Shown here one piece after another: positions 58,842 to 64,000 of a stretch of DNA of 64,000 nucleotides. Origin of the DNA: an uncultured Gemmatimonadaceae bacterium (GTDB lineage: Bacteria > Gemmatimonadota > Gemmatimonadetes > Gemmatimonadales > Gemmatimonadaceae). Location: contig CAWAGQ010000005.1 in assembly GCA_963781585.1 (NCBI GenBank), positions 224,001 to 288,000 on the forward strand. The letters are read 5' to 3'. The position numbers and the translations under genes were made by a program. Under the pieces are notes generated by a model, which was given only the letters and a program-made list of their open reading frames with translations, was not told where the DNA came from and searched no databases. Numbering within the stretch: position 1 is the first letter of the stretch; each line of letters begins with the position of its first letter.

Positions 58842-59120
58842 TCACCAGCTGATGGTGCCCTTCTTGCTGGTGTCGACGTCTTCCCCCGATCCACTCTTGA
58901 ACAGGAAAGCCTGGAGGTTGCGCGTCAGGAAGGCCCGTGCCTGCGGATCCATCACATTGAGTCCGTAGTGGTTGATCAGCATGGTCTGCTGCCGCAACCA
59001 ATCTCCCCAACATTGCTGACAGATTTCGGCGACGATGCGAGCCCCTATCTGACCGGGGAAGGGCGGGCGCTCAAAGCCCGCGCGCGTCTGCCCGCAATGC
59101 GAGCAAGTGACTTCCGGCAT
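58842..59120 (-). CDS. yggX: Fe(II)-trafficking / oxidative damage protection protein
   Basis: PFPG..G.RI...ICQQCW..WL..QTMLIN.YGLN..DP..R.FL pattern. Confidence 0.88.
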   Translation of the reverse strand: MPEVTCSHCGQTRAGFERPPFPGQIGARIVAEICQQCWGDWLRQQTMLINHYGLNVMDPQARAFLTRNLQAFLFKSGSGEDVDTSKKGTISW

Positions 59121-59177: not shown

Positions 59178-59954
59178 TCAAGTCACCGGCTGCTGCCGCC
59201 GCCGGCTCGACCCGGCGTGAAGTATCTGCGCGAGGCCCAGCACCGAGAGCGCCCGGAGATACAGCCAGCCCACATCGAACTCGAACCATCGAGCCGCGAA
59301 ACGCGCTGATCGGGGGTCGGCGTGGTGGTTGTTGTGCAGCTCCTCACCGCCGAGCCAGATAGCAATCGGAGCGATGTTCCGGCTCTCGTCCTTGAGCTGG
59401 AAGTTCCGGTATCCCACGGCATGGCCGAATCCGTTGATCACGCCCGCCGCCCAGAACGGAATCCAGATCATTTGAATGCCCCAGACGACGCCCCCGATCA
59501 GAATTCCGAACAGGTATACATCGGCGGCCAGCATCACGATGACCCCAAGCCAGTTGAGCCTCGTAAACACATTCCGCTCGAGCCAGTCGTTGGGAGTTCC
59601 GCGACCGTACTTCTCGAGAATCCCCGGCTGGCGCACCGTGCGTCGATAGTAGAACGCCCCCTTCAGGACGATGTTCCGCAGGCCTTCGAGCAGAGGACTG
59701 TGCGGATCTCCTTCACGATCCGCGAAAGCATGGTGCTTTCGATGGCAGGCCACCCACTCCTTGGTCACGATGGCAGTAGTGAGCCATAGCCAGACCCGCA
59801 TCGGCACGGCGGCAAGCCACCGGAGCCTCACGGCACGATGCGTCTGAGAACGATGCAGAAAAAGCGTAACGCACACGTTCGTGAGATGACCCGCGATGAC
59901 GATGAAGACGACTGGCTTCCACCACGAGGCCGACCAGCTGCCAAACTCTGGCAT
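59178..59954 (-). CDS. Delta-9-type fatty acid desaturase
   Basis: His boxes HRSQTH, HRKHH (DPHSP) and HNNHH; GVINGFGH; EFDVGW. Confidence 0.92.
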   Translation of the reverse strand: MPEFGSWSASWWKPVVFIVIAGHLTNVCVTLFLHRSQTHRAVRLRWLAAVPMRVWLWLTTAIVTKEWVACHRKHHAFADREGDPHSPLLEGLRNIVLKGAFYYRRTVRQPGILEKYGRGTPNDWLERNVFTRLNWLGVIVMLAADVYLFGILIGGVVWGIQMIWIPFWAAGVINGFGHAVGYRNFQLKDESRNIAPIAIWLGGEELHNNHHADPRSARFAARWFEFDVGWLYLRALSVLGLAQILHAGSSRRRQQPVT

Positions 59955-62153: not shown

Positions 62154-62312
62154 TGGCCGGCCTACTCGCAACTTCGCTTCACTACGCGACCTCCGGTCAC
62201 TGCCGCCGTGTCCGCAGAGTGATTCGTTGGTCCCGCCGCAGCGCTGGTCTGGACAGCCCAGCGGCCTGAATGTTGCTTTACGGACCGCATAGCGGGCTCG
62301 ACTGCTTATGGA

Positions 62313-64000
62313 ATGTCACCATCCTCCCCTGACGATCAACCGAGCAATTTCCTCGCCGTTGTCATTGTAGGGAATGACGCGCTCGTCGAAGCCCTTCCCG
62401 CACGACCAATCCAGTTCGCGCTCGCCTGCCGCGCCATCGGATTCGATGTGGTGCTTCCGGGATCGTGGGGTGATGAGCTCGTGGCGGCGGCAACACTCCG
62501 AATTCTGGAGACGCGCGACCACGCGCCTGCCGTATTCTGTGCGTGCCCGCATGTGCGGGACCGTCTGCTCTCTGGCGGTACCGAGCTCGGTTCGCTGCTC
62601 ATTGCTCCCGTTGCACCTCCAGTCGCCGCTGCTCGTTACGCGCGGGCTGCCTATTCGGGTCGTGCTCTTCATCTGACATATATCGGGGACTGCCCCGCCG
62701 CGAGCGCGCCGGACTTCGACACCCGGCACAAGACGCGCGAGTTTCTGGCGCTGCTGGGGTCGCGTGGCATCGACCCGCTCGAACAACCGGCAGTGTTCGA
62801 CGACATCCTCCCACCCGATCGCAGGCGACACTTCTCGCTGCCGGGTGGGTGCCCATCACCACAGGCTCTCTGGCAGCGTGCCAACGAGCGCGTCCTGGTC
62901 GAACTCGAAGGGGTGGACCTGACGCTGGATCTCGCCCAGCATCTCCTGACTCGGCAGCCTGCCCTTGTTGATCTCGCATCGGCACTCGGCTGCGCCTGCA
63001 GCGGAGTGACTGAACTGACGACTGGGCTGAGCGCGCGTGTCGCAGTCACGTCGCTGGAACCACCGAGATCCGCCAACCCGGTGATTGATCCGGGTCTCTT
63101 GAAACCATCCGACTTTCTGGTTCGCGAAGAGGATCTCGCCGAGGCAGGCAGTCGAAACCCGGCCTCGGATCCGGGCACGACCATGCAATTGAACTCGGGG
63201 GGGCGCGGCGTGTCGGCACGGCCAGGTGATACCGGGCTCCGACCCAATCCGCCGCATCGCCCGATCGCAATCACTCCTGTGGAAGCACTTCACGAAGACC
63301 TCGCAGAAGGGGGCTCGCATCGAGCTCGGCGCGGCAGGAGTCTGCCAGAGACCACCTCGCAAGAAGTGAAGATCCGCGCAGGCGTCGGCCGAACAGGGCA
63401 GGGCATGGCCCCCCCGACCGTGGCGGACGCCCCGTTCTCGCCAGAAGAACAGGCCTTCCCCGTTCGCGTTGAGGCCGAGCACAACGTCGAGCGATCAGTG
63501 CCGTCGCCGATCGAGTCGTCGCGACCGGTCGACCAGCTCCCGGAACCGGCACCGGGTAGCCGACGGAAACCTGCGGCGGGAGAGGCGATCAGAGAGCGCG
63601 GGGGAGCAGTGCTCCGGATCTCGACAGCCGGCTTCCCGACCGTGCGCCGTTCAGAGCCGCTGGTGAGTCGACTTCCGCGTGCATACATGGGCCGCCGGCC
63701 GGGCACAGCCCAGCACCAGGGCGGACACGCACCGCCAGCACCTGAGAGCGCGCAACCGAGGGAGTCACCGATGGCGGGCCGCGAGGATCGTGAGATCCCC
63801 ATGATACCTGCAGTCGAGCGCACTGCGCCGGCCATATCGACTTCAGCATCGGGACCTGTTTCGCCGGGACACCGCGACGAAGCGTGGATTTCCGCGACCG
63901 GGCGCGCCCCGGCACGACCGACGAGCGGCAGGTCAACGCACGTACCCACCACCGGTCAGGTTGTCGACCCCCTTAGTGGAGCGCAGCAACGCCTCCGCGC
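62313..64000 (+). CDS. Protein with N-terminal [FeFe]-hydrogenase H-domain/Nar1-like domain and long disordered tail; 3'-truncated by the window edge
   Basis: Not in the ORF track. I translated it by hand from ATG 62313 with no stop before 64000: ...ACRAIGFDVVLPGSWGDELV...PAVFCACPHV...APPVAAARY...TYIGDCPA...GIDP...FSLPGGCP...LGCACSG, then Pro/Ser/Arg/Glu-rich sequence. Confidence 0.75.
   Translation, partial: MSPSSPDDQPSNFLAVVIVGNDALVEALPARPIQFALACRAIGFDVVLPGSWGDELVAAATLRILETRDHAPAVFCACPHVRDRLLSGGTELGSLLIAPVAPPVAAARYARAAYSGRALHLTYIGDCPAASAPDFDTRHKTREFLALLGSRGIDPLEQPAVFDDILPPDRRRHFSLPGGCPSPQALWQRANERVLVELEGVDLTLDLAQHLLTRQPALVDLASALGCACSGVTELTTGLSARVAVTSLEPPRSANPVIDPGLLKPSDFLVREEDLAEAGSRNPASDPGTTMQLNSGGRGVSARPGDTGLRPNPPHRPIAITPVEALHEDLAEGGSHRARRGRSLPETTSQEVKIRAGVGRTGQGMAPPTVADAPFSPEEQAFPVRVEAEHNVERSVPSPIESSRPVDQLPEPAPGSRRKPAAGEAIRERGGAVLRISTAGFPTVRRSEPLVSRLPRAYMGRRPGTAQHQGGHAPPAPESAQPRESPMAGREDREIPMIPAVERTAPAISTSASGPVSPGHRDEAWISATGRAPARPTSGRSTHVPTTGQVVDPLSGAQQRLR

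Follow-up and report, generated by a model that had tools for sequence, protein, structure and literature searches.

The closest described relatives of the protein discussed here are the catalytic [FeFe]-hydrogenases (HydA; CpI, CrHydA1, CbA5H and TmHydA), whose H-domain is represented by the model PF02906 (Fe_hyd_lg_C), the HydS-type proteins of groups C and D (TmHydS, TamHydS) and Nar1/CIAO3. In the known enzymes, the Lys of the second Cys motif (P2, MPCxxK) contacts the diiron site and the second Cys of the third motif (P3) bridges to it. According to the available part of one article, the proton-transfer Cys is not kept in the sensory groups C and D (PMC8163306). Nar1/CIAO3 (NARFL, IOP1) is described, in the accessible portions of the respective sources, as a relative of the H-domain that has no hydrogenase activity and retains Cys residues for Fe-S clusters (PMC12621388) and as a protein that binds the CIA (cytosolic iron-sulfur assembly) targeting complex (PMC12991071, PMC13451876). 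Here, we describe a gene on the forward strand of a 64,000-nucleotide stretch of DNA from an uncultured Gemmatimonadaceae bacterium (G000:C5:224001-288000, in the following the window), which starts at position 62313 and codes for an H-domain homologue followed by a long disordered linker and, beyond the window end, by a predicted membrane anchor. With slightly better than even confidence, we read the protein as a non-catalytic Fe-S module with signalling hydrogenases as its ancestors, which a disordered linker bearing short conserved motifs ties to the membrane.

We found no paper on this family in the literature, and an earlier note on the same DNA, made from its letters alone, was right to propose a candidate undescribed system in that no described function was found. 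The likeness of the domain is already on record in database labels, which read '[Fe-Fe] hydrogenase large subunit C-terminal domain-containing protein' for some members at NCBI and 'iron only hydrogenase large subunit' for some at JGI; a survey of aerobic soils could mistake genes with these names for H2 metabolism. For marine Gemmatimonadota, the part of a survey that is available speaks only of 'few [FeFe] hydrogenases', and its supplementary figures might include such sequences (PMC11316326).

The gene and its N-terminal head

From the ATG at 62313 (+) the frame stays open for 562 codons (62313..63998) and runs off the window end, as the earlier note had described for a frame of more than 560 codons, without a stop in the window, that was missing from the list of open reading frames (ORFs). 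In the contig, the full gene codes for 606 aa (L001 1501..3321) and its stop lies at window position 64133, 133 bases beyond the window. All the motifs quoted in that note are present in the translation in the order given there, with the codons of C76 at 62538, C78 at 62544, C127 at 62691, C227 at 62991 and C229 at 62997.

The query is matched at E<=1e-3 by 404 database proteins (among 8000 candidates scored). Representatives of clusters at 50% identity match in 453 cases at E<=1e-3, in 384 at <=1e-10 and in 293 at <=1e-30, and among the matches listed (150) the H-like domain is N-terminal and the protein length is 283-811 aa. The genome itself, which is 93.53% complete with 7.19% contamination, holds a second, syntenic copy of 609 aa on a contig of ~430 kb (G000:C8:292239-293932, L002), with the same neighbours. 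The gene of this C8 copy shows 77% nucleotide identity to the target, and the neighbouring proteins look much more similar; because of the estimated contamination, the copy may come from a co-binned related strain rather than from a duplication. In a Nei-Gojobori comparison of the two copies, dN/dS was lowest in residues 1-258 (0.17) and higher in the tail (0.48) and in the C-terminal part (0.27). Since hundreds of homologues share one N-terminal register and dN/dS is below 1 in all three parts, it is confirmed that the frame is a real gene under purifying selection, with conservation far beyond chance.

The part of the protein on which the homology rests is the head:

62313..63086, + strand: N-terminal H-domain-like module, residues 1-258 (AF2, Foldseek, VIA, hhalign, dN/dS 0.17)

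The AlphaFold2 (AF2) domain model, made from the first 263 residues and 36 relatives, has a predicted local distance difference test score (pLDDT) of 90.4 and a predicted template modelling score (pTM) of 0.89, and the fold begins at about residue 10; residues 1-258 stay confident in a full-length model made with 50 relatives. A Foldseek search with the head model, a check that the earlier note had proposed as one option beside a profile comparison, returned 73 matches at E<=1e-3, and every listed top match is an [FeFe]-hydrogenase (best match 6ttl_A: E 5.3e-9, prob 1.00, TMq 0.67). In a VIA scan of 48,161 chains, which is independent of Foldseek, only four chains reached Z>=8, all of them hydrogenases (Z 18.7, 17.2, 17.2 and 15.5; 252-255 of the 263 residues aligned with a root-mean-square deviation of 3.4-3.6 Å), and the next best chain had a Z of 5.0. 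The model thus matches strongly only [FeFe]-hydrogenases, and the H-domain likeness claimed in the note is borne out by fold and profile alike: hhalign aligned the family profile with the HydA and HydS-like H-domains of family f10 with a probability of 97.4% (E 9.6e-12, 146 columns).

The query alone matched PF02906 with an E of 0.091 and 12.8 bits, under the gathering threshold of 22.1 bits, and the C8 copy scored 15.9 bits. The same model was matched at E<=1 by 31 of the 36 relatives (best 8.1e-9), and some database members carry a precomputed PF02906 assignment. The trimmed profile A2 reached Thermotoga HydA in the PDB at E 0.08; profile A4, which adds relatives linked to a GGDEF domain, matched 12 hydrogenase sequences in the PDB (E 5.4e-4 to 0.86); and the untrimmed profile A1, in which the tails are included, found nothing there at E<=10. 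No hydrogenase was among the PDB matches of a phmmer search with the domain, and its best match, a muconate lactonizing enzyme (E 0.009), was judged to be spurious. A search of the ESM Atlas gave only Gemmatimonadota clusters, part of them tagged with PF02906. Because relatives match PF02906 and because of the profile-profile probability, we conclude that, despite the sub-threshold score of the query, the head is an [FeFe]-hydrogenase H-domain homologue that lies beyond the reach of the PF02906 model.

Active-site positions and descent of the head

The following positions of the head were compared with the catalytic motifs:

62427..62429, + strand: C39, a further conserved Cys in helix 32-42 (296 of 333 relatives; invariant in the 7 GGDEF-type relatives of alignment A4)
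62538..62546, + strand: C76-A77-C78, equivalent of P1 (C78-P79 aligned to the Cys-Pro of TSCCP / TTCP by HMMER, hhalign and MAFFT)
62691..62693, + strand: C127, equivalent of P2, with GxC-P instead of MPCxxK (hhalign and MAFFT alignment to the P2 Cys)
62811..62849, + strand: invariant loop PPDRRR-x2-S-x-PGG, residues 167-179 (conservation in 333 members)
62991..62999, + strand: C227-A228-C229, an altered P3 (MAFFT and hmmalign; codon of C227 at 62991, of C229 at 62997)

All conservation counts refer to 333 non-redundant members. The P1 region was mapped by HMMER, hhalign and MAFFT and the P3 region by MAFFT and hmmalign only; the local hhalign alignment ends at residue 181. At P1, catalytic HydA has TSC[C/S]P, HydS-like proteins have [T/S/A]-C-P and the target family has C76-A77-C78-P79. 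This places C78 (330 members, the remainder gaps) at the position of the P1 cluster-ligand Cys and A77 at that of the proton-transfer Cys (C299 in CpI numbering). C76 is found in 319 members, and position 77 is never Cys, its six commonest states being Ala (146), Ser (85), Val (74), Thr (22), Phe (1) and a gap (3). At P2, MPCTAKK of catalytic HydA and GPC[IV][AT]KK of HydS-like proteins (e.g. GPCIAKK) correspond to a segment in which the Lys-Lys has given way to Ala/Gly and variable residues. C127 is present in 326 members (the remainder gaps); it is aligned to the P2 Cys by hhalign and MAFFT, unlike in the HMMER alignment to the PDB, which places it two residues off. Lys is absent from the five commonest residues at every position from 126 to 135; position 130 is Ala in 255 members and Gly in 62, and position 132 is Asp in 255.

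The P3 motif, C-PGG-C in catalytic HydA and C-NG-C in HydS-like proteins, is changed to G-C227-A-C229. In the alignments C227 (324 members) takes the place of the second P3 Cys, the first one has no counterpart, and C229 (323 members) is specific to the family; the remainder at both positions are gaps apart from one Ser. The Cys residues at the cubane-ligand positions of P1, P2 and the second P3 Cys are therefore aligned and invariant, and an invariant C229 comes after the missing first P3 Cys, for which it may stand in as a putative relocated fourth ligand. The only Cys before C76 is C39. Because of the two CxC pairs (C76-x-C78 and C227-x-C229), a cluster held here could be a [4Fe-4S] or also a [2Fe-2S] cluster; the CxC arrangement is known from some [2Fe-2S] sensor proteins. 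Between P2 and P3 lies the Arg-rich loop, in which D169 (324 of 333), R170 (323), R171 (322), R172 (326), S175 (326), G178 (325) and G179 (326) are kept; R170, R172, S175, G178 and G179 are common to the target family and its GGDEF-type relatives. Residues 166-170 of the loop have a low pLDDT, and G179 is aligned to the GG of 'SGGV' in HydA.

The departures from the catalytic motifs that the earlier note had listed, namely Ala at the proton-transfer Cys position, the absent P2 Lys and the changed spacing of P3, agree with these alignments. It had also called for a check of Cys conservation, in which C78, C127, C227 and C229 proved invariant wherever aligned save for the one Ser, and had noticed no hydE, hydF or hydG in the window, which holds for the whole genome. 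HydG (TIGR03955) had no match in the genome, HydE (TIGR03956) reached at best 32.1 bits against a cut-off of 254.6 and HydF (TIGR03918) at best 81.1 bits against 325.55, the HydF-like matches being generic GTPases; in the controls, each maturase model was above its cut-off in 2 of 14 genomes. PF02906 had no match above cut-off in the whole genome and, at E<=1e-20, matched 12 of 401 genomes in a sample of the phylum and none of the 93 from the target's own family (f1). No Fer4 or PF04060 match was found in the target protein at E<=10, and it is thus without accessory F-clusters. Given that the proton-transfer Cys and the P2 Lys are lost and that the organism is without HydE, HydF and HydG, the head can probably not make or split H2 and would hold at most a simple, putative Fe-S cluster; that the protein handles H2 is very improbable.

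A comparison with catalytic H-domains (13-19% identity) finds the same fold and, in common with the target, GFD..FGAD (GFD..WGDE in the target), the P1 Cys-Pro, SP..A, the P2 Cys, the GG and the second P3 Cys, whereas the target is without the maturases and the F-clusters, without an insertion of ~25 residues, without the proton-transfer Cys and the P2 Lys and, at P3, without the first Cys and the GGGQP tail. The compact form without the HydA insertion is shared with the HydS type of groups C and D, including the HisKA- or PAS-linked proteins of family f10. Here P1 is [T/S/A]-C-P, and C-S-A-C-P in two members, which resembles the C-A-C-P of the target family, and the G-P-C of P2 resembles its G-x-C. 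In contrast to HydS, the target family has no N-terminal 2x[4Fe-4S] region, no C-terminal Cx2Cx4Cx16C or PF04060 cluster and no PAS, histidine kinase or GGDEF output, for which there is a disordered tail and a transmembrane (TM) anchor instead. It has also lost the first P3 Cys and the Lys-Lys that follows the P2 Cys, its gene has no adjacent catalytic hydrogenase and its genome no maturases, and it is set off from HydS-like proteins by a long branch (1.74). In the f10 genomes (L143-L149), catalytic HydA genes stand in tandem with genes for HydS-like proteins of the type Fer4, H-domain, FeS and HisKA/HATPase or PAS, an architecture that matches the one given for the putative sensory groups C and D in the available part of the source (PMC8163306). 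As a separate observation, P1 of the f10 HydA is TSCSP in four loci (L143-L146), with Ser for the expected second Cys, and TSCCP in L147 and L148.

Closer to the target are proteins of the same phylum in which an H-like domain is linked to GGDEF. A scan of the phylum sample with the family profile gave matches in 202 of 401 genomes, a tally that takes in one unpublished genome, G057, which no other claim uses. This number was ruled out as the range of the target family, as matches outside f1 have GGDEF-type or HydS-like architectures. The target architecture is found only in 30 of the 93 genomes of f1 (E 1e-73 or better), and the weaker matches (E 1e-7 to 1e-42) in f2 (153 of 166 genomes), f6 (12 of 30) and f5 (2 of 2) are a different protein. 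In all seven annotated loci the f2/f6 protein consists of two Fer4 domains, Fe_hyd_lg_C, FeS (PF04060) and GGDEF, in ~560-650 aa. With the target family it shares C39, GDEL, PPVAxARYxR, RRR-x2-S-x-GG-x-P and EPPR; unlike the target family it has a diguanylate cyclase as its output, accessory Fe-S domains and neither a disordered tail nor a TM anchor, and it keeps the canonical P3 C-x2-C in 7 of 14 loci. These 14 loci (L041-L044, L047, L048, L050 and L136-L142, from f2 and f6) fall into seven that keep the P1, P2 and both P3 Cys and seven from which the P1 Cys and the two P3 Cys are jointly missing. The seven complete loci were picked for the best PF02906 scores and are thus a biased sample; they rule out the idea, considered at one stage, that GGDEF-type relatives are all Cys-less. 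A single metal site to which the P1 and P3 Cys contribute jointly would fit this all-or-none pattern. The GGDEF-type gene comes after a sigma-54 activator in six f2 loci; in L050, the f6 locus, that place is taken by an ORF of 402 aa without an assignment. The protein itself has the look of a redox-to-c-di-GMP sensor that stems from sensory hydrogenases and is apparently undescribed. On the other side of the gene, a conserved ORF of ~250 aa with no assigned function follows (6 of the 7 annotated loci, with the sigma-54 activator).

A maximum-likelihood tree of 32 H-domains (272 columns), which includes five HydS-like and five HydA rows and no reference sequences of groups C and D, joins the target family and two paralogues in one clade (100/99). 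This clade is sister to the GGDEF-type group (100/99) on a branch of length 1.74, and the HydS-like (96/88) and HydA (100/100) proteins are separate from the two; the root on HydA is an assumption, and long branches call for caution. The tree suggests that the target domain descends from signalling-type H-domain proteins, with a sister group fused to GGDEF. Besides the target and the C8 copy, the genome holds a third, divergent paralogue of 778 aa without a Pfam match at E<=0.1 (G000:C4:802509-803294; L034 7001-9337, +), which keeps C78, C127, C227 and C229, not C76, and is followed by an M20-dimer peptidase-like gene. Separately, genome G278 has two copies ~35 kb apart, one of them after a cluster of anti-sigma (zf-HC2/RskA), bPH_2 and thioredoxin_9 genes (L040).

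Relatives of the H-domain that do not act on H2 are in print mainly as the eukaryotic Nar1/CIAO3, and the target family would be a bacterial offshoot with an independent loss of catalytic features. The two are alike in being non-catalytic Fe-S proteins (putatively so in the target) of aerobic organisms. Nar1 belongs to eukaryotes and carries an additional cluster site at its N-terminus, whereas the target is a separate bacterial offshoot without an N-terminal cluster motif and with a C-terminal TM helix; its architecture thus differs from Nar1 in having no accessory clusters, a long, motif-bearing disordered linker and a membrane anchor, and it occurs in an abundant and poorly studied soil phylum. 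The target family is part of the H-domain superfamily and fails the defining tests of catalytic hydrogenases, of HydS-type sensors and of Nar1, in the last case by description, no Nar1 sequence having been compared directly.

The tail, the proposed role and its alternatives

The remainder of the protein comprises these features:

63087..64000, + strand, and on past the window to about residue 550: disordered Pro/Arg/Ala-rich linker (pLDDT, composition)
63255..63290, + strand: short tail motif HRPIAITPVEAL, residues 315-326 (pattern R.P.A.TP..AL in close relatives of alignment A1)
63555..63701, + strand: basic tail motifs RR(K/T)P ... R.P...(F/I)P..R ... LPRAY..RR, residues 415-463 (50 full-length members)

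In the full-length AF2 model, the pLDDT of residues 281-548 is below 50 save for a few residues slightly above, in line with the disordered extension that had been proposed from the letters, and the tail is made up of 13.2% Pro, 12.6% Arg and 12.0% Ala (dN/dS 0.48). Beyond the window end follow a helix (residues 553-567) and a hydrophobic TM helix (579-605, pLDDT ~90), which has an Arg/Lys run before it and one residue after it. It is established knowledge that positive charges mark the inner side of a membrane helix (positive-inside rule), and because of the preceding Arg/Lys run we predict a tail-anchored protein, the remainder of which would be cytoplasmic. Of 256 listed database proteins, 169 have a TM-like segment, which in 119 cases lies <=15 residues from the C-terminus; for the 75 complete genomic copies, it lies <=15 residues from the end in 26 and further in in about 25 more.

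Conservation within the disordered part is confined to short stretches. The TP..AL of the first motif occurs in 41 of the 256 listed proteins, and the HRPIAITPVEAL region is an island of higher identity between the target and the C8 copy. In the second group, P455, R456, A457, Y458 and R462 are invariant and R417, R418, R435, P442 and L454 are kept in at least 90% of 50 full-length members; 60 long members give the consensus VRRRTP ... R.P...IP..R....LPRAYVAKRP, and PR[AG][YF] is found in 206 of the 256 listed proteins. A docking of the tail motifs onto the head was considered and dropped, as the full-length AF2 model gave no confident contact between them.

Taking head and tail together, we regard it as likely that the head binds an Fe-S cluster, and a sensory or regulatory role is plausible to us at a level somewhat short of even. 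In the mechanism that we envisage, the head, which offers C78, C127, C227 and the relocated C229 and, in addition, C76 and C39, would hold one Fe-S cluster, and the empty diiron pocket with the invariant, Arg-rich, flexible loop 167-172 beside it would leave this cluster exposed to small oxidants. The state of the cluster (oxidised, reduced or lost via O2, NO or iron limitation) would alter the engagement of a partner, and the output would run via the ~320-residue disordered linker, in which the basic motifs RRxP ... LPRAY..RR would serve to bind the partner at the inner membrane or to let it go. The boldest form of this proposal is that the family is a new bacterial signalling class, in which an ex-H-domain without a diiron site, with a solvent-exposed Fe-S cluster in the vacated pocket, senses O2, NO or Fe-S status in aerobic soil Gemmatimonadaceae and, for want of an enzymatic output domain, signals through linker motifs that bind or let go of a cytoplasmic partner at the membrane; this we put forward tentatively, and as a whole we hold it to be doubtful. 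If Fe-S sensing were true, redox or iron status in Gemmatimonadota would be coupled to c-di-GMP and to signalling near the membrane by the family together with its GGDEF sisters, and in this mostly aerobic phylum an entire 'ex-hydrogenase' branch would have taken on redox sensing as a new use, paralleling Nar1 independently.

Several points weigh against the reading as a membrane-tethered Fe-S module. A fourth ligand at a non-canonical place and CxC pairs on one cubane are unusual, and another cluster type, Zn or a structural role is possible. The fold can serve without a cluster of its own, as 7 of the 14 GGDEF-type sisters do not have these Cys. The membrane anchor is common and not universal (about 51 of the 75 complete genomic copies). 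The absence of maturases alone is not proof of non-catalysis because, in the accessible part of one study, archaea, most of which do not have HydEFG, are nevertheless said to encode [FeFe] hydrogenases that were active after semisynthetic maturation (PMC11216029); the argument for non-catalysis thus rests on the absence of maturases and the lost residues together. Finally, no conserved operon partner names a pathway, the commonest neighbours looking like plain synteny among kin, and a search of the window's genome at E<=1e-5 with a Crp-type regulator that recurs next to the gene in relatives gave no match.

The strongest alternative is a cluster-less adaptor in which the H-like fold is a scaffold and the conserved Cys bind Zn or are structural, with no redox function. 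The seven GGDEF-type sisters without the P1 and P3 Cys still keep Q34, E55, R108, Y109, R111, R170, R172, S175, G178, G179, E249 and P251, and the fourth Cys of the target is non-canonical and part of a CxC pair, all of which an adaptor would explain. It accounts less well for four Cys that are invariant in 323-330 of 333 members, three of them exactly at cubane-ligand positions, and for the joint retention or loss of the P1 and P3 Cys in the sister group; moreover, the sisters carry other Fe-S domains (Fer4, PF04060), which the target family does not have. We consider an adaptor of this kind unlikely.

The Fe-S module that we favour could also be a carrier or assembly factor, that is, a bacterial counterpart of Nar1/CIAO3 which passes a labile cluster to membrane-proximal clients. 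The principle would be the same as in Nar1, to judge from what is available of one source (PMC12621388), and the invariant, flexible Arg-rich loop 167-172 beside the presumed site would suit such a transfer. The protein has, however, no N-terminal ferredoxin-like cluster domain, its fold starting at about residue 10, there is no isc or suf gene among the recurrent neighbours in 80 loci, the patchy distribution (30 of 93 genomes of its own family) would be odd for a core assembly factor and the tree groups the target with signalling proteins. A carrier role is accordingly quite unlikely in our view.

Highly improbable is a hydrogenase that still senses or converts H2 and obtains its diiron site by a route of its own kind. 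The intact H-domain fold, the second P3 Cys kept as C227, the lineages without HydEFG whose enzymes can be matured artificially (PMC11216029, in the part available) and the missing proton-transfer Cys of groups C and D (PMC8163306, likewise) would allow for it. Against these stand a 93.5% complete genome in which no HydE, HydF or HydG is above cut-off, a P2 Cys that no Lys follows, an Asp that 255 of 333 members carry at position 132, the loss of the first P3 Cys, the lack of accessory F-clusters for electron transfer and no catalytic hydrogenase in the genome or in the 93 sampled genomes of the family at E<=1e-20. An ORF that is open by chance in GC-rich DNA, or a tail that is non-coding and wrongly called, might be thought of in a region of ~65% GC, where long shadow ORFs overlap the target frame on both strands and the tail is of low complexity, but this is refuted already by the conservation data, namely the hundreds of homologues with the same N-terminal register, a dN/dS below 1 in all three parts and tail motifs and a C-terminal TM helix that are kept in members only 33-47% identical overall.

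Neighbouring genes and the upstream element

In contigs from one genome per species 168 relatives were confirmed, and 80 of these loci were kept for counts of neighbours within +/-3 kb. The 80 loci come from metagenome-assembled genomes labelled Gemmatimonadaceae, Gemmatimonadales, Gemmatimonadota/Gemmatimonadetes or Gemmatimonas sp., the sole exception being a 2.4-kb contig binned as Solirubrobacteraceae, and no cultured strain is among them. The target gene is monocistronic, with a divergent gene upstream and a convergent gene downstream, and its neighbours are an alpha/beta hydrolase and a nitroreductase. The following recur beside the relatives:

S33 alpha/beta hydrolase: recurrent neighbour in 43 of 80 loci
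M28 peptidase: recurrent neighbour in 39 of 80 loci
Crp-type regulator, immediately divergent: recurrent neighbour in 33 of 80 loci
Smr protein: recurrent neighbour in 32 of 80 loci
ThiF-rhodanese: recurrent neighbour in 31 of 80 loci
Phosphodiesterase: recurrent neighbour in 19 of 80 loci

The Crp/Fnr-family neighbour (cNMP_binding and HTH_Crp_2; e.g. L059 2109-3011, -) has no conserved Cys cluster. For this reason, and given that the search in the window's genome did not find it, it was dropped as a general sequestered partner of the target protein; it is at most a lineage-specific regulator of expression.

Two genes of the window on which the earlier note had relied, and a box upstream of the target, are as follows:

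58842-59120, - strand: YggX-type Fe(2+)-trafficking protein (PF04362, E 6.5e-25), directly after the gene of a GH3 glycosidase
59178-59954, - strand: putative desaturase ORF of 258 aa with the His-rich boxes HRSQTH, HRKHH and HNNHH and no Pfam match at E<=0.1
62248..62255, + strand: TCTGGACA element, perhaps a box of the -35 type, which precedes the ATG by 58-65 nt

The note had linked the target functionally to yggX and to an O2-dependent desaturase. Neither the link nor the naming of the second gene could be upheld: the latter is an ORF without a Pfam assignment, the target gene is monocistronic and, in two related 15-kb loci (L035 and L036), GH3 adjoins the gene directly upstream of the target, with yggX, the putative desaturase and an MBL-fold gene absent between them. 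The upstream gene is an alpha/beta hydrolase in L035 and a 355-aa ORF without a Pfam match in L036. Taken as a whole, the note stood in its homology, motif mapping, missing maturases, disorder and lack of a described function and fell in the yggX/desaturase link; the C-terminal anchor, the tail motifs, the second paralogue and the signalling-type descent had escaped it.

The upstream box recurs among relatives. Of 82 upstream regions, 16 contain CTGGACA, for the most part close to -64, as against a mean of 0.5 after shuffling, and the degenerate TCTGGACA / T[CT]T[GT]GACA box is seen in 24 of the 82 (among them the target and L051-L130); this recurrence is weak evidence because the relatives are kin and the counts are not independent. 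Separately, TGCAATGTC precedes the box in three loci with the Crp-type neighbour (L059, L061 and L119). The box and TGCAATGTC may represent a promoter -35 box plus a regulator site.

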